Below, piece by piece: positions 2,733 through 63,656 of a DNA stretch of 64,000 nt (its first letter is position 1; every line of letters starts with the position of its first letter). This DNA is from an uncultured bacterium (GTDB taxonomy: Bacteria > Edwardsbacteria > AC1 > EtOH8). The DNA is taken from assembly GCA_963780225.1 (NCBI GenBank), contig CAWAAX010000006.1:18136-82135 (forward strand). The letters are read 5' to 3'. Made by a program: the position numbers and the translations under genes. The notes beneath the pieces are model-generated. The model ran no database searches and was not told the origin of the DNA. It saw nothing but the letters and a program-made list of their open reading frames with translations.

Positions 2733-4964
2733 ATGCATAACTCCAACTTACATAAAATATTGCCTCTGGTACAGAGGCCGGGACGTTACACCGATAACGA
2801 ACTGAATTCCGTCCATAAAAACTGGGACCAGGCACAGGTAAAGATAGCTCTGGCCTATCCCGACCTTTACGAGATCGGGATGTCCGGCTTGGGGCTGGCC
2901 ATCCTTTATTCAGTGGTCAACCGGCTGCCGCAGGCATTGGCCGACCGCAGTTACCTGCCCTGGCCGGACATGGAAGAGGCCATGCGCAAGCAGGGTATCC
3001 CTCTGTTCGGATGGGAGACCCGGCGCGAGCTTAGGGAATTCGACGTCCTGGGCATCACCCTGCAGACCGAGCTGTGCTATGCCGGGGTGCTGAACCTGCT
3101 GGACCTGTCCGGCCTGCCGCTGTATGCTGATCAGCGAAAAGAGGAGCATCCCCTGGTGATCGGGGGCGGCTCCTGCTGCGCCAACCCGGCGCCGCTGTCA
3201 AAATTCTTTGATGCCTTCGTGATCGGAGACGGAGAGGAGGCCATCGTGGAGATCTGCGGGCAGCTGCAGGAAGCCAAAGCGAAAATCGAAAGCAGAAGGC
3301 AGAAAATCGAACGGTTGTCCCGGATCCCGGGTATCTATGTCCCCATGATCCATGATGGAACAAAAACCAAGATCCGGGCCAGGCATATCGCCTCACTGGA
3401 CATCAAAGACGCCGCCCACCCGCCGCTGGTGCCGCTGGTGGAGGTGACCCACGACCGGCTGACGGTGGAGATCGCCCGGGGCTGCACCCGGGGCTGCCGT
3501 TTCTGCCAGGCCGGGATGGTCTACCGCCCCCGGCTGGTAAGGTCCGAAGACGAGGTGGTGAAGCTGGCCAGGGAGGGCATCGCCAAAAGCGGCTGGGACG
3601 AGGTCTCGCTGCTCTCGCTTTCCTCCGGGGATTACCCGGATCTCCTGGGGCTGTTGCAGAAACTTAACGGTTGTTTTTCCAATTCCAAAGTGGCCATCTC
3701 CCTGCCGTCATTGCGGCTGGATTCCTTTGACGGGGAGATGATAGAGGCCCTGAAAAAGGTGAAGAAGACCGGACTGACCTTTGCCCCCGAGGCCGGCAGC
3801 CAGCGTCTGAGGGATGTGATCAACAAGGGGATCAGCAAAGAAGAATTATTGCGGGTGATAGCCCTGGCCAAAAAAGAGGGCTGGATGCAGGTCAAGCTGT
3901 ATTTCATGATCGGTTTGCCCACCGAGACCGAAGAGGACCTCAAGGAGTTGTGCGACCTCTGCCACCAGGCGTCAAAACTGGGGGTCAACCTTAAAGTGGC
4001 GGTCTCGCCCTTCGTGCCCAAGGCCCAGACCCCGTTCCAGTGGGAGGCCCAGGACAGCTGGGAGACGCTGTACCAGAAGATAGACCTTTTGTCCCGGGGC
4101 CTCAAGTCCCACAAGGTCCAGATGAAATGGCACGACCTGCGATCCTCCAAGCTGGAGGGACTGCTGGCCCGGGGCGGCAGCGAAACGGCGGCCCTGATAG
4201 AAAAGGCCTGGCAGAAGGGGGCCAAGCTGGACCAGTGGAGCGAGCATTTTGTCTGGGGGCGCTGGGAAGAGGCGATGCAGGAACTGGGCCTCGATCTGAA
4301 TAATTTGTGCCGGGCCAGGACCGACGAGGAAACATTGCCCTGGGATAACATTGATTACGGGGTCTCCAAGAAATTCCTGCTGCAGGAAAAGCAGAAAGCC
4401 TACCAGGAGCAGATCACTTCTGACTGCCGGGAGCAGGGATGCCACGGCTGCGGGGCGGACTGCGGGACGCAGGGAACAGGGATCAGGGATCAGATGTCAG
4501 GGGACAGGGGACAGGAGGCAGGGGACAGCTTAAAGCATAAAGCTGTCAGCTTACAGCTTGTTGATGGTTTCGGGCGCAGCGCCAAGAAGATGGCCGGGCC
4601 GGCCCCGCTGGCCAGGACCAAGTTCCGCCTGCGCTATGCCAAGGGGCCCGAGCTTCGCTTCATCTCGCACCTGGACCTGATGCGGGCCTGGCTGAGGGCC
4701 GTCAGCCGGGCGGAGCTGCCGGTGGCCTTCTCCCAGGGCTTTTCCCCGCATCCCAAAATAGCCTTTGGCCCGCCGCTGGCCCTGGGGCTGACCACCAGCG
4801 CCGATTACATGGACATCCAGCTGGACCGGCCGCTTTCTGAGGACATCGGACTGCTGATCAACCCCCATTTGCCGCCGGGGTTGAATGTGCTGGAGTCCAA
4901 GCCAATCTTCGGCAACGCAAAGTCAATCACCGAGCTGTGCGACGCCGCTGAATACCGGGTCTAA
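2733..4964 (+). CDS. B12-binding-domain radical SAM protein (TIGR03960-like) fused to a radical-SAM-associated DUF2344 (TIGR03936-like) domain; ends at an in-frame TAA
   Basis: The CxxxCxxC motif 'CTRGCRFC' sits within 'VEIARGCTRGCRFCQAGMVY'. The C-terminal part 'RFRLRYAKGPELRFISHLDLMRAWLRAVSRAELPVAFSQGFSPHPKIAFGPPLALG' is DUF2344-like. Confidence 0.7.
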   Translation: MHNSNLHKILPLVQRPGRYTDNELNSVHKNWDQAQVKIALAYPDLYEIGMSGLGLAILYSVVNRLPQALADRSYLPWPDMEEAMRKQGIPLFGWETRRELREFDVLGITLQTELCYAGVLNLLDLSGLPLYADQRKEEHPLVIGGGSCCANPAPLSKFFDAFVIGDGEEAIVEICGQLQEAKAKIESRRQKIERLSRIPGIYVPMIHDGTKTKIRARHIASLDIKDAAHPPLVPLVEVTHDRLTVEIARGCTRGCRFCQAGMVYRPRLVRSEDEVVKLAREGIAKSGWDEVSLLSLSSGDYPDLLGLLQKLNGCFSNSKVAISLPSLRLDSFDGEMIEALKKVKKTGLTFAPEAGSQRLRDVINKGISKEELLRVIALAKKEGWMQVKLYFMIGLPTETEEDLKELCDLCHQASKLGVNLKVAVSPFVPKAQTPFQWEAQDSWETLYQKIDLLSRGLKSHKVQMKWHDLRSSKLEGLLARGGSETAALIEKAWQKGAKLDQWSEHFVWGRWEEAMQELGLDLNNLCRARTDEETLPWDNIDYGVSKKFLLQEKQKAYQEQITSDCREQGCHGCGADCGTQGTGIRDQMSGDRGQEAGDSLKHKAVSLQLVDGFGRSAKKMAGPAPLARTKFRLRYAKGPELRFISHLDLMRAWLRAVSRAELPVAFSQGFSPHPKIAFGPPLALGLTTSADYMDIQLDRPLSEDIGLLINPHLPPGLNVLESKPIFGNAKSITELCDAAEYRV

Positions 4965-5285
4965 GTGATGAGACCTTCGATCCTCCGGACCGCAGTGCAG
5001 AAGGCCAGAGTGATTCTGGACGGCAAAAAGCCCTGGCCGGTCAATGTCCTGCGCAAGGACCAGCACAAGGAACTGGACCTGGCTCCCCAGATACTGGACA
5101 TCTCGGACGAGGCCGGTTCTCTTAAGATCAAAATGCGGCTGGTGGAGGGCGGGGTCAAGCTGAACGAGGCGCTGGCGGTGATACTGGAACTGCCGGAGGG
5201 CAGGATCAAGCAGCTGCTGATAGAGCGGGTAGGGATGTACCACATTACGCCACGGGAGATGCTGAGCCCCATGCGGTTTGTTTAA
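4965..5285 (+). CDS. Continuation of the DUF2344 domain, same frame as the upstream gene and separated from it only by TAA
   Basis: It starts at GTG directly after the TAA at 4962-4964 in frame 0. The sequence 'ILDGKKPWPVNVLRKD...LKIKMRLVEGGVKLNEALAVIL' resembles the C-terminal half of TIGR03936-family proteins. Confidence 0.5.
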   Translation: MMRPSILRTAVQKARVILDGKKPWPVNVLRKDQHKELDLAPQILDISDEAGSLKIKMRLVEGGVKLNEALAVILELPEGRIKQLLIERVGMYHITPREMLSPMRFV

Positions 5286-5297
5286 AGCTTTTTATTT

Positions 5298-5395
5298 AAC
5301 CACAGAAAGCACAAAGGGCACAAAAAATTTCTTTCTATATTTCTCAAGTGGTTTTTAAATCGTGATCCTATGTGATTTATGTGCATTTTGTGGTT
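5298..5395. repeat. Gene-less inverted-repeat hairpin of the CACRAAR family
   Basis: The left arm aaccacagaaagcacaaagggcacaaaa (5298-5327) is complementary to the right arm tgtgatttatgtgcattttgtggtt (5371-5395). The right arm is nearly identical to the right arm at 8836-8857. Confidence 0.6.
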
Positions 5396-8368: not shown

Positions 8369-8415
8369 AAATTGTCGGGCCTGGGTGGTAAATTATGAAT
8401 CAATAAATTAATTTA

Positions 8416-8857
8416 CCACAAAAAGCACAAGGAACACATAAAATGACGGATAACGAAGTATTGCGACTATGTGATATTGTTAGGCAGACGGCCTTTGTTC
8501 TTCATACCTATTTACGGAACGGCCATTTGGAAAAGGTATATGAAAACGGATTAACCCATCGTCTTCGTAAGGCAGGAATAAAGGTCGAACAGCAGCACCC
8601 TTTAAAGGTTTTTGACGAAGATGGAACCATTCTGGGGGAGTACTTCGCAGACCTGTTAATAGAAACGGAACTTATCGTCGAACTTAAGGTCTGCAAGGCA
8701 ATAGCAGATGAGCACCTGTCCCAAGTATTCGGATATTTACGCGCCACAGGGCAGCGACATGGATTATTAATTAATTTTGGATCGCAACAAATTCAATTTA
8801 AGAAATTGGTTTTGTAGGTATGGCGTTAATTTTGCGATTTATGTGCTTCTTGTGGTT
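8416..8857. repeat. Matched inverted-repeat pair enclosing a GxxExxY gene
   Basis: The left arm ccacaaaaagcacaaggaacacataaa (8416-8442) ends 1 bp before the ATG. The right arm gatttatgtgcttcttgtggtt (8836-8857) lies 19 bp after the stop. Arm cores ccacaaRaagcaca...taaa are complementary. Confidence 0.6.
8443..8817 (+). CDS. GxxExxY family protein (PD-(D/E)XK-like small protein), paralog 1
   Basis: 'LEKVYENGL...GEYFADLLIETELIVELK...' matches the GxxExxY pattern. It is paralogous to the ORFs at 18126 and 27504. Confidence 0.8.
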   Translation: MTDNEVLRLCDIVRQTAFVLHTYLRNGHLEKVYENGLTHRLRKAGIKVEQQHPLKVFDEDGTILGEYFADLLIETELIVELKVCKAIADEHLSQVFGYLRATGQRHGLLINFGSQQIQFKKLVL

Positions 8858-11829: not shown

Positions 11830-11916
11830 GCCACTAAGGCACAAAGACACAAAGGGTATTAAAAATAGTACCAAGCGCGATAAATAATTTTCTTGGAGCC
11901 TTGGTGTCTTTGTGGC
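11830..11916. repeat. Gene-less inverted-repeat hairpin of the CACRAAR family
   Basis: gccactaaggcacaaagacacaaagg (11830-11855) is complementary to ccttggtgtctttgtggc (11899-11916). It uses the same octamer units (aaagacac, taaggcac) as the arms flanking the GxxExxY gene at 27504. Confidence 0.6.
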
Positions 11917-17290: not shown

Positions 17291-18049
17291 ATGATCTACC
17301 AACAACTGCTGAAAACCGCCAAGCAAAAGGGCTCGAATTTCCTGGTCCTTTTGGACCCCGACAAGTGCAAAAAACAGGACGCGGCCAAGATCGGCCAGGC
17401 CTTGAACGACGCCGGGGCCGATGGCATCCTGTTCGGCACCAGCCTGCTGATGTCCAACCAGATCGACGACACCATCAAGGCCTTAAAGCAGAACTTCAAA
17501 CAGCCGGTGATCATATTCCCCGGCAGCGCCTACCAGGTCTCGCCGCACGCCGATGCCATCCTGTACCTGTCGCTGGTCTCGGGCCGCAATGCGGAACTAT
17601 TGATCGGTGAGCAGGTCAAGGCCGCGCCCATGCTGAAAGCCTCGGGCCTGGAGGTGATCCCCACCGGCTACATGTTGATCGAGTCCGGCAAGCTGACCTC
17701 GGCCAACTACATGAGTCACACCATGCCCATCCCCCGGGACAAGTCCGACATCGCCATGGCCCACGCCCTGGCCGCCCGGATGCTGGGGATGAAGCTGATC
17801 TACATGGACGCCGGCAGCGGCGCCCAGCAGAGCGTCCCAGAGGAGATGATCGCCGGGGTGGCCAAATATGCCGAGCTTCCCGTTGTGGTGGGAGGCGGCA
17901 TCAAAACGCCCGAGGACGCCGGGGCCAAGGCCCGGGCCGGGGCCGCCGCGGTGGTGGTGGGGAACATTTTGGAGAAGAAGGGCAACATCAAGACGGCGGC
18001 GGATTTCGCCAGGGCTATTCACTTCAGGGCGAAAACAAACCGGGGCTAA
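17291..18049 (+). CDS. Geranylgeranylglyceryl/heptaprenylglyceryl phosphate synthase family protein (PcrB/GGGPS)
   Basis: 'LVLLDPDK...ADGILFGTS...IIFPGS...LIYMDAGSGA...VVVGGGIKT' follows the GGGPS/PcrB TIM-barrel pattern. A GGAGG RBS precedes the ATG. Confidence 0.7.
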   Translation: MIYQQLLKTAKQKGSNFLVLLDPDKCKKQDAAKIGQALNDAGADGILFGTSLLMSNQIDDTIKALKQNFKQPVIIFPGSAYQVSPHADAILYLSLVSGRNAELLIGEQVKAAPMLKASGLEVIPTGYMLIESGKLTSANYMSHTMPIPRDKSDIAMAHALAARMLGMKLIYMDAGSGAQQSVPEEMIAGVAKYAELPVVVGGGIKTPEDAGAKARAGAAAVVVGNILEKKGNIKTAADFARAIHFRAKTNRG

Positions 18050-18545
18050 CCACGGAAACACGGAATTTATGAAAACACGGAAACATATAAAATGATTTGT
18101 TTGATTACGTTAGGTGTGTTTATATATGAGTATAGTAAGATCTGACCATTTGGAATTAGAAGAATTAACAGGGAATATTATTTCTTGCGGAATAGAAGTC
18201 CATAAAAAACTAGGTCCCGGATTTCTGGAATCGCTATATGAATCTGCTTTGCTGGTAGAACTTCAAAAAAGAGGCTTGCATACCACAAGTCAAAAGGAGA
18301 TCAGGGTATTTTATGACGGATTTGAAATTGGCGTACACCGGCTGGACATTGTCGTAGAGAATAAAGTTATTGTTGAACTTAAAGCGGTCGCTGAACTTGA
18401 CCAATGCCATAAAGCACAGTTGCTGTCATATCTCAAGGCTAGTCATTTAAAAATTGGGTTACTGTTAAATTTTTCTAAAAATATTCTCCAGGTGAAAAGG
18501 ATGGCATATTGATTCCCAGAATTCCTCATTCAGTGTTTCCGTGGT
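18048..18545. repeat. Matched inverted-repeat pair enclosing a GxxExxY gene
   Basis: The left arm aaccacggaaacacggaatttatgaaaacacggaaacatataaa (18048-18091) is complementary to the right arm cagtgtttccgtggt (18531-18545). The core is accacggaaacac. Confidence 0.6.
18126..18512 (+). CDS. GxxExxY family protein, paralog 2
   Basis: 'HKKLGPGFLESLYESAL...IVVENKVIVELKAV' is paralogous to 8443 and 27504. The ORF-track start at 18114 is GTG; the ATG at 18126 is the more likely start. Confidence 0.8.
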   Translation: MSIVRSDHLELEELTGNIISCGIEVHKKLGPGFLESLYESALLVELQKRGLHTTSQKEIRVFYDGFEIGVHRLDIVVENKVIVELKAVAELDQCHKAQLLSYLKASHLKIGLLLNFSKNILQVKRMAY

Positions 18546-26385: not shown

Positions 26386-27468
26386 ATGCCAGATATCAAC
26401 CGTCAAAGGATCAACGGCATCAGAAAGGCCCTGGCCTCAAACAAGGCCGACGGCATCATCATCACTAACCTGGTCAACATCAGATACCTGGCTGGTTACA
26501 CCGGAAGCTCCGGATTGTTGTGGATATCAAAGAAGGAGTCTGTATTCTTCACTGATTTTCGCTATCAGGAACAGGTAAAACGGGAGGTGAAGGGGGCCAG
26601 GTGCGTCATCATCAAAAAAGGGCTCTGGGAGGAATTGTTCCTGAACCCCGATTTTAAAAAAGCCCAAAAGATCGGTTTTGAAAAGAACGATTTGAAATAT
26701 TACCAGTATGAACTGCTGCAGAAAGAACTGAAGAAGAAAAAACTGCTGCCGTTATCAGGCCTGACAGAGGAGCTCCGCAAGGTCAAGGTTCAGGACGAAA
26801 TAAAGAACATCGCCCGGGCCGCCGCCATCGCCGACCAGGCCTTCAGCAAGATAGTCAAAATAGTAAAACCGGGAATGACCGAGCTGGAGATAGCCTTTAA
26901 ACTGGAATCGATCATGAAGACCCTGGGGGCCAGCGCCCCTTCGTTCGACACCATAGTCGGTTCCGGGCCCAACAGCGCACTGCCCCATGCCCAGCCGTCG
27001 GTGCGGAAGATACGGAAGGGAGATTTCATCGTCTTCGATTTCGGGGCGGTTTACCGGGGCTATCATTCCGACATGACCCGGACTGTCTGCATTGGAGAAC
27101 CAAGCCCCAAGCACCTGAAGGTCTATGACACCGTGCTTAAATCCCAACTGGCCGGGCTTAAAGCCATCAAGGCCGGGATCAAGGGGATGGAGGCAGACCA
27201 GGCCGCCCGCGCAGTGATCGATGGCGCCGGCTATGCCAAGTACTTCGGCCACGGCCTTGGTCACGGGGTAGGCCTGGAGGTGCACGAGGCCCCGGGGGTG
27301 GGAAGCAAGTCGGTGAATGTATTGCCGGTAAACTCGGTAGTAACGGTGGAACCGGGGGTCTATCTGCCGGGCTGGGGCGGGGTGCGGATCGAGGATCTGG
27401 TGGCGGTCACCGCCAAGGGCTGCCGGATATTAAGCAACTCGCCCAAGGAGCTAATTGTCATCAAGTAG
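26386..27468 (+). CDS. pepP: Xaa-Pro aminopeptidase (M24 family)
   Basis: 'FGHGLGHGVGLEVHEAP' is the M24 metal-binding signature. Confidence 0.85.
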   Translation: MPDINRQRINGIRKALASNKADGIIITNLVNIRYLAGYTGSSGLLWISKKESVFFTDFRYQEQVKREVKGARCVIIKKGLWEELFLNPDFKKAQKIGFEKNDLKYYQYELLQKELKKKKLLPLSGLTEELRKVKVQDEIKNIARAAAIADQAFSKIVKIVKPGMTELEIAFKLESIMKTLGASAPSFDTIVGSGPNSALPHAQPSVRKIRKGDFIVFDFGAVYRGYHSDMTRTVCIGEPSPKHLKVYDTVLKSQLAGLKAIKAGIKGMEADQAARAVIDGAGYAKYFGHGLGHGVGLEVHEAPGVGSKSVNVLPVNSVVTVEPGVYLPGWGGVRIEDLVAVTAKGCRILSNSPKELIVIK

Positions 27469-27475
27469 TTCCTTT

Positions 27476-27922
27476 GCCACAAAGACACTAAGGCACGAAA
27501 ATCATGAATTATCAACCGCTATCAACAGTAGAAGAAGAGCGGGCAAAGAAAATCGTAGATGCCGCATATGCAGTGCATAAAAAACTGGGTCCGGGGTTGC
27601 TGGAAAAAGTATACGAGGTATGTTTTTGGCATGAATTGTCTAAACGGGAATTAAGGTACCAAAGGCAAGTTGATGTACCGATTGTTTATGACGGTATAAC
27701 GTTTGATGAAGGACTATGTTTAGATGTCCTGGTGGAAAACAGCATCATCTGTGAATTGAAAGCCGTAGATGAGATGAATCCAGTCTGGGAAGCACAAATA
27801 CTGAGCCATTTAAAACTAACTGGCAAACGCCTTGGATTTCTCATCAATTTTAATCTGTCAGTTATCAAAAACGGTATTAAACGATTTATTGTATAAACTT
27901 GGTGACTTAGTGTCTTTGTGGC
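27476..27922. repeat. Matched inverted-repeat pair enclosing a GxxExxY gene
   Basis: The left arm gccacaaagacactaaggcacgaaaatc (27476-27503) abuts the ATG. The right arm cttggtgacttagtgtctttgtggc (27898-27922) lies 2 bp after the stop. The 17-bp core gccacaaagacactaag is perfectly complementary. Confidence 0.7.
27504..27896 (+). CDS. GxxExxY family protein, paralog 3
   Basis: 'HKKLGPGLLEKVYEVCF...LDVLVENSIICELKAV' matches the GxxExxY pattern. Confidence 0.8.
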   Translation: MNYQPLSTVEEERAKKIVDAAYAVHKKLGPGLLEKVYEVCFWHELSKRELRYQRQVDVPIVYDGITFDEGLCLDVLVENSIICELKAVDEMNPVWEAQILSHLKLTGKRLGFLINFNLSVIKNGIKRFIV

Positions 27923-27971
27923 GGAAGAGTTCCATCATCAAATAATATACCCAAACTGTTAGGAGGAGAAA

Positions 27972-28529
27972 TTGGCCAGCACTGCGGATCTGAGAAATGG
28001 AATGGTACTGAACTACGAGGGACAGCTTTTTTACACGGTGGAGTTCCAGCACGTCAAACCGGGCAAGGGCGGAGCTTTTGTCCGCACCAAGCTCAAGAAC
28101 GTCAAGACCGGCGCGGTGATCGAGCGGACCTTCCGCTCCGGGGAATCCATCACCGAGGTCAGGCTGGAGCGCCGCAAGATGCAGTACTTGTATAACAGCG
28201 ACGGCATGTACATGCTGATGGACAGCGAGACCTACGAGCAGATCAGCCTGCCCAGGGAACTGTTCAAGGATATCAAGGATTTTTTAAAGGAGAATACCGA
28301 GATCCAGGTACTGCTGCACGGGGAAGCAGCTATCGGAATCGAGATCCCAACCTTTGTCCTCCTGAAAGTTGCTCATTCCGAGCCTGGATTCAAAGGGGAC
28401 ACTGCTTCCTCGGTCACCAAGCCGGCCACCCTGGAGAGCGGGCTGGTGGTCCAGGTGCCCCTGTTCATAAACGAAAATGACCTGCTGAAGATAGACACCA
28501 GAACCGGAAAGTATTTAGAGAGGGCCTAA
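27972..28529 (+). CDS. efp: Elongation factor P
   Basis: 'LRNGMVLNYEGQLFYTVEFQHVKPGKGGAFVRTKLKNVKTG' is canonical EF-P. Confidence 0.95.
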   Translation: MASTADLRNGMVLNYEGQLFYTVEFQHVKPGKGGAFVRTKLKNVKTGAVIERTFRSGESITEVRLERRKMQYLYNSDGMYMLMDSETYEQISLPRELFKDIKDFLKENTEIQVLLHGEAAIGIEIPTFVLLKVAHSEPGFKGDTASSVTKPATLESGLVVQVPLFINENDLLKIDTRTGKYLERA

Positions 28530-28530
28530 A

Positions 28531-29310
28531 ATGGATTTAAAACAAACCTTGGAGCGGATGGTCAAGGAGAATGCATCGGACCTTCATTTAAAGGCTGGCA
28601 TGCCTCCGGTTTTCAGGGTGGACGGATCATTGAAGCCGTTGAACGAGCCGCCCCTTTCCCCCGAGGAACTGAGGCAGGTGGCTCTACAGCTGATGCCCAA
28701 GGACCAGCAGCAGATCTTTGCCGAGGAGAAGGAACTGGACTTCGCCATCGGGGTGGCCGGGCTGGGGCGATTCCGGGTAAATGTTTACATGCAACGCGGT
28801 AGCGTGGCCCTGGCCCTAAGGGCTATTCCGGTTTCGGTTAAAAAAATTGACGAGCTGGCCCTGCCGCCCATCATCAAGGAATTGGCGGTAAGCCACCGGG
28901 GGATGCTGCTGGTTACCGGCACCACCGGTTCCGGCAAATCCACCACCATGGCCGCCATGATAGAGCATGTCAACGAAACCGAAAGCCGGAACATCATCAC
29001 GGTGGAAGACCCGATAGAATTTTTGTTCCGCGATAAAAAGTCCATCATCAGCCAGCGGGAGGTGGGCACCGATACCCTGTCCTTTGCCGCCGCCTTAAAA
29101 CACGTGCTGCGCCAGGACCCGGACGTGATCCTGATCGGGGAGATCCGCGATAAGACCACTTTAGGAACCGCACTTCAGGCTGCTGACACCGGTCATATGG
29201 TGATGAGCACCCTTCATACTCTGAACGCCTCGGAGACCATCAACCGGGTGATCTCCTTCTTCCCCCCCACCAGCACGAGCACATCCGGGTGCTGCTGGCC
29301 GCCACCCTGA
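28531..29310 (+). CDS. pilT: Type IV pilus retraction ATPase PilT, N-terminal 259 aa; frame lost in a poly-C tract
   Basis: It has Walker A 'GTTGSGKST' and PilT motifs. The expected continuation 'FFPPHQHEHIRVLLAATL' is read in the +1 frame after the C-run at 29262-29268. Confidence 0.85.
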   Translation: MDLKQTLERMVKENASDLHLKAGMPPVFRVDGSLKPLNEPPLSPEELRQVALQLMPKDQQQIFAEEKELDFAIGVAGLGRFRVNVYMQRGSVALALRAIPVSVKKIDELALPPIIKELAVSHRGMLLVTGTTGSGKSTTMAAMIEHVNETESRNIITVEDPIEFLFRDKKSIISQREVGTDTLSFAAALKHVLRQDPDVILIGEIRDKTTLGTALQAADTGHMVMSTLHTLNASETINRVISFFPPTSTSTSGCCWPPP

Positions 29311-29648
29311 TCGGGGTGATTAGCCTGCGCCTGCTGCCCCGGGCCGACGGCAAGGGTCGGGTGCCGGCGGTGGAGGTGATGATCAACAACGCCACGGTCA
29401 AGGAACATCTTCTGGATCCGGTCAAGACCTTGATGATCCCCCAGCTGATCTCGGAGGGCAATACCCAGTATGGGATGCAGTCCTTTGACCAGTCAATTAT
29501 GAAACATTACCGTGACGGGATGATCTCTTACGAGACCGCCCTGCAAAGCGTGACCAATGCCGATGAATTCAAGCTCCGCTTGAGGGGCATCGAGAATGCC
29601 TCCGATTCCCGGGGGTGGGATTCATTTGACGCATCGTCCAGGAGATAA
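29289..29648 (+). CDS. pilT: PilT C-terminal segment, frameshifted relative to 28531-29310
   Basis: 'VLLAATLIGVISLRLLPRADGKGRVPAVEVMINNATVKEHLLD' matches the PilT C-terminal region. Confidence 0.8.
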   Translation: MLLAATLIGVISLRLLPRADGKGRVPAVEVMINNATVKEHLLDPVKTLMIPQLISEGNTQYGMQSFDQSIMKHYRDGMISYETALQSVTNADEFKLRLRGIENASDSRGWDSFDASSRR

Positions 29649-36593: not shown

Positions 36594-36838
36594 AAGCTTC
36601 GGACCGCCCCCCTGCCCCCTCCGTTGCGGAGGGGGAGGGGAGTGTCCCTCTCCACATTGGAGAGGGACAAAGGGAGAGGTCAAAAGCTTCGGACCGCCCC
36701 CTCGTTCCCCCTCCGTAGCGGAGGGGGAATAGGTTGTGTGAATAGTTATGTGTTGATATGTTTGATGATGTAAATAAAACTGATGACGAAATCCCTCTCC
36801 ACAATGGAGAGGGGGAGGGGAGAGGTCGAACCAGGCCA
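36594..36838. repeat. GC-rich mosaic palindromic repeat modules between the MTase gene and the DUF559 gene
   Basis: aagcttcggaccgcccccctgccccctccgttgcggagggggag... occurs twice, and atccctctccacaatggagaggg extends into the 5' end of the DUF559 ORF. Confidence 0.7.
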
Positions 36839-37219
36839 GCCCACCCCAAGGGCAGCACCGGGATTATCAGGCTGCAAAAAGTGAAAAGCAGCAAATTAGA
36901 GTTGGCCAAATATTTCAGACAGCATATGACACTTGGCGAAAGGTGCTTCTGGAATATGACCCGCAAGAACCAGGTCAACGGTTACCGATTCAGACGCCAG
37001 CAGGTGATCCACGGCTTTGTTGCCGATTTCTACTGCAACCAGATAAACCTGGTGGTCGAGATAGACGGCGGCATCCACGAACAGCAGAAGGACTACGACA
37101 AGCTTCGCACAAAAATAATTAACCAGTACGGCATCCGGGTCATACGTTTTACCAACGAAGAAATGATGGATAAAAGCGATTGGGTGTTGGAGAAGTTGAA
37201 GGAAGCTGCGAGAAGTTGA
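36758..37219 (+). CDS. DUF559 (Vsr-like endonuclease-fold) protein; the 5' boundary is uncertain because the ORF's first ~25 codons are repeat sequence
   Basis: 'KLELAKYFRQHMTLGERCFWNMTR...GYRFRRQQVIHGFVADFYCNQINLVVEIDGGIHEQQKDYDKLRTKIINQYGIRVIRFTNEEM' is the DUF559 pattern. Confidence 0.7.
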   Translation: MFDDVNKTDDEIPLHNGEGEGRGRTRPAHPKGSTGIIRLQKVKSSKLELAKYFRQHMTLGERCFWNMTRKNQVNGYRFRRQQVIHGFVADFYCNQINLVVEIDGGIHEQQKDYDKLRTKIINQYGIRVIRFTNEEMMDKSDWVLEKLKEAARS

Positions 37220-37223
37220 TTGC

Positions 37224-37374
37224 CTAAAGCTTCGGACCGCCCCCTCGTTCCCCACTTTCGCTTGTCGTAGTGTTCTGCCTTGCTCAGTGCAGGCACTCCG
37301 TTGCGGAGGGGGAGGACAGACATCCCTCTCCACATTGGAGAGGGATAAAGGGAGAGGTCGAACCCCGCAGGACG
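37224..37374. repeat. GC-rich mosaic palindromic repeat modules downstream of the DUF559 gene
   Basis: ctaaagcttcggaccgccccctcgttccccactttcgcttgtcgtagtgttctgccttgctcagtgcaggcactccgttgcggagggggag...catccctctccacattggagagggataaagggagaggtcgaacc. Confidence 0.7.
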
Positions 37375-37877: not shown

Positions 37878-38300
37878 GCACCAAAACCTAAATCCTAAAC
37901 CCTAAACAAATTCCAAATCATAAGCCATAAACCCAAAACAGTTCGTTGTTTTGAGTTTGGCGAATTTATATTTGTTTAGAATTTAGATACTTGCTTCCAT
38001 CGCCGGGCAGTAGGGGCGAAGCACTAAATCCGAAATCCGAAATCCTAAACAATCCCAAATTATCAAAACCTAAAACTCAAAACTGTTTCGTACTTTGTAT
38101 TTAAACAATTAGAATTTGTTTTGAGTTTAGATACTTACTTCTATCGCAGGGCAGCAGGGGCGAAGCCCTAAATCCGAGATACGAAATCCTAAACAATCCC
38201 AAATGACCAAAACCTAAAACTCAAAACGGTTTCGTGCTTTGTATTTAATAATTAGAATTTGTTTTGAATTTAGATATTAGTATTTAGAGATTTAACCAGT
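37878..38300. repeat. Three tandem copies of a ~145-bp highly structured AT-rich repeat immediately upstream of mutL
   Basis: Units start near 37878, 38021 and 38166. Each contains the inverted repeat aaaacctaaaactcaaaac / gttttgagtttag, (g/t)aaatcc microrepeats, and a G-rich tail ctatcgcagggcagcaggggcgaag. Confidence 0.75.
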
Positions 38301-62990: not shown

Positions 62991-63656
62991 TCTCTCCAAA
63001 ACAAAAAACCCTCCCGCCTTGGCGGGAGGGTTTTTTGTTTTTATGCCGTGCCAGCGGAGGTATTCTATTTCATCAATTTCTTGGTGATGATGACAGAAAC
63101 CAGCGTCAAAACCAGCAGGGACATTACCACTATGATTATAACACTGACGAATTGTTTGGCCTGAACGCCGAAAGAATATTCCCAGACAAAACAGCAGGGC
63201 GTACCACAGGGCGATCCCGGGCAGGCCGTAAAGCAAAACCTTTTTAAAACTGTAGCCGGTCAACCCGGCGATCAAAAAGCCGAAGGAACGGCCGCCCGTT
63301 ACGGCCCGGTTCAAGGCCAGGATCAGGTTCCCATACTTAGCAAAATGGCCTTCCATCAACAGCAGCCTTGAGGGCGAAAGAAAAGGGCGGGGCTTGGCCA
63401 GAAAATAGTCCCGGCCTTTTTTGATTCCGATCCAATAAACCAGCAAGGCTCCCAAAGAACCTCCCAAAAACGCCGCCAGGAACCCGGGAAACCAGTGCAA
63501 CTGGCCTTGGCCCGCCAGTATGGCGCAAAAGATGACCACTACATCGCTGGGGGCCGGGGGAAAAATGCCTTCAAGAAAGGTGGCCGTAAATATGGTCAGG
63601 TAAGCCCACCAGCCGCCTTGGGAGGCCAGAGTATTGGCCAATTGTTCCATGCTCAT
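62970..63656 (-). CDS. DedA/SNARE-associated family membrane protein; the 3' end is uncertain because the ORF reads through the terminator hairpin
   Basis: 'LTIFTATFLEGIFPPAPSDVVVIF...' is the DedA pattern with multiple TM helices. Confidence 0.65.
   Translation of the reverse strand: MSMEQLANTLASQGGWWAYLTIFTATFLEGIFPPAPSDVVVIFCAILAGQGQLHWFPGFLAAFLGGSLGALLVYWIGIKKGRDYFLAKPRPFLSPSRLLLMEGHFAKYGNLILALNRAVTGGRSFGFLIAGLTGYSFKKVLLYGLPGIALWYALLFCLGIFFRRSGQTIRQCYNHSGNVPAGFDAGFCHHHQEIDEIEYLRWHGIKTKNPPAKAGGFFVLERLSHCVL
63009..63041. terminator. Strong bidirectional Rho-independent terminator
   Basis: ccctcccgcc-tt-ggcgggaggg, flanked by aaaaaa upstream and ttttttgttttt downstream. Confidence 0.8.

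Follow-up and report, generated by a model that had tools for sequence, protein, structure and literature searches.

The nearest described counterpart of the element reported here is the intervening sequence (IVS) of 23S ribosomal RNA (rRNA) in the form that carries an open reading frame (ORF). Such IVSs occur in Coxiella, Leptospira, and Xanthomonas, and their cargo is a four-helix-bundle protein, S23p or 23S_rRNA_IVP; to our knowledge, the origin and mobility of rRNA IVSs have been open questions since about 1990. The Coxiella IVS measures 428–444 nucleotides (nt), is closed by a terminal stem of 28 base pairs (bp), and has tandem heptamers upstream of a 14-kDa ORF for S23p; it is excised by RNase III, and its RNA structure outlasts decay of the ORF (PMC4990558). 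Genes of the corresponding family, PF05635, have been reported as interlopers in cas operons (PMC3936711). Here we describe a unit of similar layout with a different cargo: a gene of the GxxExxY family between the arms of an inverted repeat, at positions 27476–27922 of a 64,000-nt stretch from an uncultured Edwardsbacteria bacterium (contig CAWAAX010000006.1, positions 18,136–82,135; the whole stretch is hereafter the window). We refer to gene plus arms as a cassette, and to the three cassettes of the window as a (the copy just named), b, and c. The arrangement is real, non-random, and general, and, as far as could be established, undescribed—full-text searches on GxxExxY, PDDEXK_3, PF13366, and TIGR04256 returned no description of flanking arms or of function, in agreement with the impression of the initial annotation of this DNA.

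In cassette a, the sequence at 27476–27492 (GCCACAAAGACACTAAG) is mirrored exactly as its reverse complement at 27906–27922 (CTTAGTGTCTTTGTGGC). A repeat search lengthens the arms of this 17-bp perfect inverted repeat to 24 nt (27476–27499 and 27899–27922, the right arm reading TTGGTGACTTAGTGTCTTTGTGGC), with 92% complementarity (22/24) and 399 nt between them. It is the sole perfect inverted repeat of at least 14 nt in the window at arm spacings of 20–700 nt, and no 17-mer inverted repeat turned up when the window was simulated 60 times with a first-order Markov model. One ORF lies between the arms: gene a, on the + strand at 27504–27896, encoding 130 amino acids (aa), in a cassette that lies between pepP and efp. 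The perfect repeat around a GxxExxY gene, as first annotated, is therefore borne out, with some corrections of detail. The perfect left arm stops 11 nt before the ATG at 27504 and does not end right at the start codon; a right arm placed 2 bp after the stop codon is correct for the extended, imperfect arm and incorrect for the perfect one, which lies 9 nt after the last stop base; and the product is 130 aa long, not about 125.

Each arm is a short tandem array of purine-rich 8–9-nt units, in which one or two variable bases follow a conserved core, CRC-N-RAG; the outer end of the arm reads (A/G)CCAC and is mirrored as GTGG(T/C). The left arm of cassette a comprises three CAC-N-RAG units (GCCAC-AAAGA, CAC-TAAGG, and CAC-GAA; written as repeat units, CACAAAGA, CACTAAGG, and CACGAA), and its outer 17 nt pair perfectly with 27906–27922. 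Folding of the arms had been proposed in the initial annotation; when 27466–27932 is folded as RNA, the arms form the closing stem, predicted at about 27 bp, in both the minimum-free-energy and the centroid structure (−128.8 kcal/mol, z = −3.5). We rejected an intrinsic terminator as an explanation for cassette a, given that the interval 27300–28100 contains no terminator-like site with a T-run and that the loop would be 399 nt long.

The three window proteins are unambiguous members of the GxxExxY/PDDEXK_3 family, with TIGR04256 scores of 136.7, 114.8, and 146.2 bits (cut-off 35) and PF13366 (PDDEXK_3) scores of 130.7, 103.9, and 140.9 bits (cut-off 22). The GxxExxY motif and the PD-(D/E)XK catalytic constellation are both present, on a fold of the restriction-endonuclease type; G31, E34, Y37, D74, E84, and K86 are invariant, E38 is nearly so, and the AlphaFold model has a predicted local distance difference test (pLDDT) score of 92.9. 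The fold is that of the DNA nucleases Cas4, Dna2, BpuSI, and Hjc, and the product of gene a corresponds to a minimal Cas4/RecB-like nuclease with conserved catalytic residues. Because these residues are invariant, the protein is likely an active metal-dependent nuclease. A sequence search for homologues with solved structures found none, and the PADLOC defence and PHROG phage collections gave no family match, only Cas4-like hits at E of about 0.003. The family is large, with 15,418 cluster representatives at 50% identity (E ≤ 1e-3). Among them are proteins of about 270–295 aa (P0286, P0291, P0292, and others) that have two GxxExxY domains in tandem, with two matched stretches per protein, and resemble cassettes that are fused or adjacent.

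For an estimate of generality we drew on one genome per species, which yielded at least 586 loci, and used the best 80. The sample covers more than 12 phyla, including Bacteroidota, Ignavibacteria, Verrucomicrobiota, Planctomycetota, Acidobacteriota, Cyanobacteria, Desulfobacterota, Chloroflexota, UBP2, and Dadabacteria. Each locus was scored by its best inverted repeat with one arm in the 150 nt that precede the gene and the other in the 150 nt that follow it, at a threshold of 12 or more; 58/80 loci reach it, against a shuffle mean of 7.6 and shuffle maxima of 8–13. The initial annotation had made its reading depend on matched arms at other GxxExxY loci, and this result does not refute it; the hairpin-bounded arrangement is a general property of the family. 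Almost all of the flanking arms are CRC-N-RAG arrays (for example CGCAAAGGCGCAAAGG, CACAGAGAACACAGAG, and CACCAAAGCACCAAAG), and the architecture is also present in isolate genomes, namely those of Sphingomonas parapaucimobilis, Bernardetia, and Flavobacterium aestuarii. In the 58 units with clear arrays, the medians are three cores per arm, 14.5 nt from the end of the left arm to the start codon, 7.5 nt from the stop codon to the right arm, and 470 nt (range 428–726) for the whole unit. The arms thus leave only about 15 nt ahead of the start codon and about 8 nt behind the stop codon, too little for a private promoter or terminator; none was predicted for the window copy.

Arm arrays are also concentrated at these loci, with a density of 5.6 per 10 kb against 0.9 per 10 kb in a 918-kb background, which was taken from a metagenome scan with the window RecA (relatives at 72% identity or less). 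This background contains no GxxExxY gene, yet a few gene-less hairpins. CRC-N-RAG hairpins of this kind stand beside recA in unrelated metagenomic contigs (L084 7166–7246, L113 3440–3562, and L082 2560–2660; L numbers denote loci fetched for comparison), and the sequence fetched around recA in these three holds no GxxExxY gene. Rfam has no family for the arms or hairpins at gathering thresholds and no hit in the window; permissive searches returned sub-threshold look-alikes of miRNA precursors, which are generic hairpins. An expanded left flank was observed in L006 (2660–2930), where a 41-nt module with the left arm (AATAATTGCCACGAAGACGCAAAGACACGAAGGATAAAGAG) is repeated seven times in tandem before the GxxExxY gene, the right arm being single.

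Within the window, a motif scan and a whole-window repeat search recovered five units, all between + strand genes. Cassette b (8415–8856) has an rnfD-like gene on one side and recA on the other; its left arm (8415–8442) consists of the 9-nt units ACCACAAAAAG, CACAAGGAA, and CACATAAAA, its + strand gene (8443–8817) encodes 124 aa, and its right arm (8830–8856) reads TTTTGCGATTTATGTGCTTCTTGTGGT. Cassette c (18049–18545) has PcrB on one side and a nucleotidyltransferase gene on the other. Its left arm (18049–18085, ACCACGGAAA CACGGAA ... CACGGAAAC) starts on the last base of the PcrB stop codon; the matched arms are 18049–18066 and 18528–18545 (ATTCAGTGTTTCCGTGGT), with a third left core extending to 18085. 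The + strand gene c (18126–18512) encodes 128 aa from the ATG at 18126, and an alternative GTG start at 18114 is possible. The remaining two units are gene-less hairpins that fold well on either strand (z of −3.4 to −4.6). The one at 5299–5394 is built from the 9-nt units of cassette b and has truA 35 nt downstream; the other, at 11830–11916, is built from the 8-nt, a-like units, lies directly upstream of recX, and has a same-site copy in the relative L170.

These units confirm that the two other paralogs share the layout, as first annotated, and that the arms differ among cassettes while matching internally. The arm units are CACAAAAAG, CACAAGGAA, and CACATAAAA in cassette b and CACGGAAA and CACGGAA in cassette c, and the cores within this one genome read CACAAAG, CACAAAAAG, and CACGGAA. 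The claim of gene-less copies of the same arms stands in part—the hairpins exist and belong to the same motif family, but their sequences are not identical to the gene-bearing arms. A host signal should be uniform, whereas the motif varies among the cassettes of this one genome; by this inference we rejected an array of Chi sites or of other host-factor sites. Proteins a, b, and c are merely 31–41% identical in pairs, and the genes are therefore old paralogs, not recent copies.

Exact-protein look-ups of the window GxxExxY protein and EF-P gave no match, and syntenic relatives were found through homologues of PepP; the window belongs to a TA06/Edwardsbacteria-like lineage. At the pepP|efp site, the cassette is intact in L161 and L163 (PepP 91% and 86% identical). 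In L162 (2395–2590), a TA06 relative (PepP 87%), it is cut after about 45 codons and the remainder is replaced by a gene-less hairpin of the b/5299 arm family, with the same asymmetry between left and right arm. In L164–167 (PepP 82%), a 58-nt gene-less hairpin (GCCACAAAGGCGCTAA...TTGTGTTTGTGGC) occupies the exact cassette position; at the PcrB junction of the 82% relative, arms are lacking and a small ORF of no relation is present. In L168, L170, and L171, both cassette b and the recX hairpin are conserved as orthologs. Upstream of truA in L170 (2437–2509), the right arm alone remains and the upstream gene is unlike that of the window, which places a synteny breakpoint inside the hairpin.

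Orthologous cassettes are under purifying selection, with ratios of nonsynonymous to synonymous substitution rates (dN/dS) of 0.09–0.20 beside 0.07–0.11 for pepP and similar values for other neighbours; pseudogenes occur at 5/80 loci. The cassette is thus kept vertically by selection, and it decays to pseudogenes and to gene-less hairpins. Recent exchange of cassettes between relatives was considered and rejected, the dS signal being inconsistent: dS of cassette a is below that of the flanking pepP (0.25–0.32 vs 0.70–0.79), whereas dS of cassette b is not below that of its flanks (0.37 vs 0.20–0.61).

Gene and arms also form a heritable unit that is occasionally transferred between lineages. 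Homologues of protein a are found at unrelated loci in UBP2 (L001, 88% aa identity) and Dadabacteria (L002, 79%), and homology among these and the window is confined to the cassette, opening at GCCAC and closing at GTGGC. By contrast, no protein of the metagenome collection exceeds 72% identity to the window RecA. In Sphingomonas parapaucimobilis (L192 2460–2900), a GxxExxY cassette with CGCGAAGG arms sits between fabD and fabG in the core fatty-acid operon; in S. paeninsulae (L193 670–700), fabD and fabG are 30 nt apart with no cassette. The evidence speaks against active transposition. No consistent direct repeat indicative of target-site duplication was seen at the 21 junction pairs inspected or at the filled/empty Sphingomonas pair, although the available filled/empty pairs are too distant for base-level resolution. 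Exact proteins found on 13–24 contigs had a single genomic context every time, near-identical copies at different loci were not found, and there is no transposase—the only gene is the nuclease core of 125–130 aa. Carriage by viruses and plasmids is minimal (1 match in IMG/VR, 0/50,697 phage records, and 7/72,556 plasmids, all non-mobilizable); with no PADLOC or PHROG family and near-absence from phages and mobilizable plasmids, a defence or phage origin is unsupported.

The initial annotation had read the cassette as a mobile or selfish unit with derivatives resembling miniature inverted-repeat transposable elements (MITEs). This reading is partly supported: the unit is discrete and transferable and the gene-less hairpins are related to it, as indicated by the GCCAC...GTGGC boundaries at unrelated loci, presence and absence at fabD|fabG, the hairpin at the cassette site of the 82% relative, and the nesting in L162. 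A MITE-like transposon is not demonstrated: no target-site duplication was seen at the junctions inspected, no transposase and no near-identical copies were found, and inheritance is vertical under purifying selection.

We favour, with a probability of about 45%, a selfish or interloper cassette that resembles an IVS, with arms that function in the transcript made by read-through. On this proposal, the promoter-less GxxExxY gene would be transcribed by read-through from the host operon, and the arms would pair in the transcript, closing the whole gene into the loop of a stem of about 20–27 bp. The stem would hold the purine-rich ribosome-binding region in a duplex with sequence just past the stop codon and so may gate translation; it may also insulate the cassette RNA or excise it by RNase III-type cleavage, as in ORF-bearing 23S rRNA IVSs. 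Insulation or excision would keep the insertion tolerable for the host operon, and expression would be coupled to that operon. The initial annotation had offered a processing structure as its alternative; this is our preferred reading of what the arms do, because of the bias to sense orientation, the arms that hug start and stop codons, and the parallel with rRNA IVSs. The bias is strong: at 72 loci a neighbour could be called on each side, and the GxxExxY gene runs in the direction of both neighbours in 57 and against both in 4. With symmetric ends, such a ratio implies either that selection strongly favours insertion in the sense direction of transcription units or that insertion is strand-specific.

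Several observations weigh against this proposal. Complementarity between arms is 96% at core positions and far lower between them; the variable position within the core matches at 57% and the spacers at 49% (permutation nulls 34% and 31%), so that pairing as such is weakly conserved. Arm mismatches show no excess of wobble pairs (G·U 84 vs A·C 83; A·A and T·T are commonest), and in the ortholog L163 two right-arm positions are altered without compensating change in the left arm. Arms are still about 80–100% complementary overall; nonetheless, conservation is stronger for the inverted, repeated motif than for base pairing as such. In keeping with this, the b/5299 hairpin family keeps its two arms distinct across loci, with CAC[AG]AAGGG on the left and CACATAA(A/G) on the right. 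A simple stem does not explain why arms are built of tandem units, and about 8% of loci have a complete small hairpin on each side of the gene, a layout that does not obviously call for a long-range stem around the gene. Additionally, conserved 16S and 23S probes found no sampled cassette in rRNA among all fetched loci, and read-through transcription and RNase III cleavage are pure inference.

The motif conservation lends itself to an alternative at the level of DNA, which is possible though we think it unlikely: a nuclease/repeat system akin to homing endonucleases or to repetitive extragenic palindromic (REP) sequences and their REP-associated tyrosine transposases (RAYTs), with the CRC-N-RAG arrays as recognition sites of the cassette's nuclease. 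Double-stranded DNA or extruded single-stranded hairpins would be recognised and cut at or between the arms, which would promote homing of the gene into gene-less hairpins or the spread of hairpins in the manner of MITEs or REPINs. Compared with action in the transcript, this mechanism would give a better account of a motif conserved beyond pairing, of arm types that go with their protein, and of the hairpin nested in L162. Near-invariant cores (96%) amid variable positions (49–57%), free of G·U bias, are the pattern expected of protein-binding sites, and the catalytic residues are intact on a fold shared with the DNA nucleases Cas4, Dna2, BpuSI, and Hjc. Arm types differ within a genome and travel with the a-clade protein across at least nine phylum-level taxa (in a second large cluster the association is confounded), which argues against recognition by any one host factor with sequence specificity. 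The window and the recA regions of unrelated genomes contain gene-less hairpins whose arm families match, a hairpin of the b/5299 family landed inside cassette a in L162, the synteny break in L170 coincides with a solo arm, and the hairpin–gene–hairpin layout recalls RAYT genes between REPINs. These points are countered by the lack of target-site duplications at inspected junctions, by exact proteins in one context only and paralogs just 31–41% identical, and by cassettes and empty hairpins that are stably orthologous over about 10–18% protein divergence. The 57:4 sense bias is not predicted by a DNA-level system itself, although a replication-strand-specific mechanism could produce it, and we know of no strand-transfer activity in a 125-aa PD-(D/E)XK core. 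The action of arms in the transcript and their recognition as DNA are not exclusive; the two are compatible with each other.

A broader version of this idea, which we regard as doubtful, would make GxxExxY genes and CRC-N-RAG arrays an unrecognised class of autonomous element. The minimal Cas4-like nuclease would recognise its own arms as hairpin or duplex and drive homing or hairpin-directed copying into intergenic sites, the gene-less hairpins found across many phyla would be its non-autonomous, MITE- or REPIN-like derivatives, and the ORF-bearing rRNA IVS would be one branch of the class.

We consider it quite improbable that the gene is a domesticated small nuclease of benefit to the host, with arms that serve as mRNA-stabilising, translational-control, or insulating structures and gene-less hairpins that are independent stem-loops. 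Purifying selection as in housekeeping neighbours, vertical retention of the same sites over long spans, a strong bias towards the orientation of the host operon, and absence from phages and mobilizable plasmids are all consistent with host benefit, as is the terminator-like T-run after some hairpins (for example the first hairpin of L064). Against these stand the patchy distribution, with presence and absence between congeners and close relatives; pseudogenes at 5/80 loci; copies 79–88% identical at unrelated loci in different phyla; the many divergent paralogs wedged into unrelated core operons (fab, recA, and efp); and the lack of a defence-family match—together the hallmarks of an interloper, not of a housekeeping gene. 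Lastly, an origin of the repeat by chance, or through an error of assembly or annotation, has nothing in its favour except that most loci come from metagenome-assembled genomes, and it is refuted by the 0/60 simulated windows with a 17-mer inverted repeat and by the same architecture at 58/80 independent loci, isolate genomes among them.

The window has further features of note. It contains a second small nuclease gene between hairpin repeats, a DUF559 (Vsr-like PD-(D/E)XK endonuclease) gene at 36758–37219, within 36596–37365, that has a distinct composite palindromic module on both sides (AAGCTTCGGACCGCCCCC..., CCCCCTCCGTTGCGGAGGGGGA, and TCCCTCTCCACATTGGAGAGGGA). The gene-free interval 37880–38300 holds about three copies of a module of about 120 nt, rich in CTAAATCC / AAACCTAAAACTCAAAAC and with internal inverted repeats, and a perfect 21-bp hairpin at 62998–63041 (AAAACAAAAAACCCTCCCGCC / GGCGGGAGGGTTTTTTGTTTT), with A/T runs on both sides, resembles a bidirectional intrinsic terminator. 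At 28531–29648, a pilT-like (T2SSE) gene is split into two ORFs (259 and 119 aa) and is a single 372-aa gene in all relatives, which suggests that a frameshift near 29290 has either made it a pseudogene or arisen as an assembly error. Within 2733–5285, a radical-SAM/DUF2344 ORF ends at 4964 after 115 of the 176 DUF2344 profile positions, directly followed by an ORF at 4965–5285; the two are probably one gene broken by a stop codon or frameshift, and, if so, that gene ends 13 nt before the 5299 hairpin.

These findings, of hairpin-bounded cassettes lodged in core operons such as fabD|fabG, pepP|efp, and upstream of recA, give a testable hypothesis, that of an interloper or selfish cassette, to a very large family, GxxExxY/PDDEXK_3, with essentially no functional literature. 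They offer many non-rRNA counterparts of IVSs in cultivable bacteria for the study of processing and mobility, and they define a widespread class of intergenic hairpin, with arms made of 8–9-nt arrays, that is absent from Rfam. There are also practical consequences: the arms account for N-terminal extensions that annotated GxxExxY proteins wrongly carry, and they indicate where relatives have undergone rearrangement (L162 and L170).

Among known systems, integron cassettes are likewise promoter-less single genes expressed from outside; we rejected this identity, as the arms lie on both sides, there is no attC, IntI, or cassette array, and the units are dispersed among housekeeping genes. MITEs and transposons with terminal inverted repeats resemble the cassette in those repeats, and MITEs also in their short gene-less derivatives and compact size, but no near-identical multi-copy family and no transposase partner were found. 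Homing endonuclease genes of the PD-(D/E)XK type, free-standing or intron-borne, such as I-Ssp6803I, are also small nuclease genes present or absent at a fixed intergenic site, and a gene placed in the middle of a palindromic target would be expected to have inverted half-sites on either side. A homing endonuclease would also cleave the gene-less allele of its own insertion site; at pepP|efp, the cassette was seen intact, decayed, and absent. Unlike a homing site, however, the arms are found with the gene at unrelated loci as well and are therefore part of the element, not a conserved host target; moreover, the gene-less hairpins of the cassette family have loops of 25–130 nt and form no contiguous palindrome.

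REP/REPIN–RAYT systems share more with the cassette: a single nuclease-type gene amid its own short palindrome-forming repeats, gene-less intergenic hairpin derivatives, vertical inheritance, purifying selection, and separate repeat families for each paralog. The analogy is confined to the arrangement of flanking repeats, since the cassette gene encodes a PD-(D/E)XK protein and not an HUH Y1 protein of the IS200/IS605-like kind. In contrast to RAYTs, there are many paralogs per genome, the repeats are arrays of 8–9-nt units instead of REPs with a GTAG head, and no large near-identical gene-less populations were seen in the sequence available.

In the end, the comparison leads back to the ORF-bearing IVS of 23S rRNA. 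IVS and cassette are both units of about 430–470 nt with one ORF of about 125–145 aa and a terminal-repeat stem of 20–28 bp (predicted for the cassette), and the window copy and the 58 units (median 470 nt) fit the pattern of such a stem around a single small ORF in about 0.4–0.7 kb. Both have tandem, purine-rich repeats of 7–9 nt directly upstream of the ORF, both lie in sense orientation in the host transcript, both are distributed sporadically with inferred horizontal transfer, and in both the ORF may decay while the stem persists. They differ in location, the window units lying between protein-coding genes and not in helix 25 or 45 of 23S rRNA; in cargo, which is a PF13366 PD-(D/E)XK nuclease and not the PF05635 four-helix bundle; and in arms that, unlike those of IVSs, conserve a repeated motif, not strict pairing. 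One further locus joins the two cargo types. In L172 (3711–4235; also in L173 and L174), a PF05635 (23S_rRNA_IVP) gene sits between ParA-like and polysaccharide-export genes, in the same operon as a GxxExxY cassette and one gene away from it, with six 14-nt purine-rich tandem repeats upstream and segments of 84–88% complementarity downstream; the flank architecture is therefore common to at least two cargo families. On balance, the cassettes are best read as IVS-like, hairpin-bounded ORF elements that carry a putative nuclease as cargo and reside in mRNA operons.

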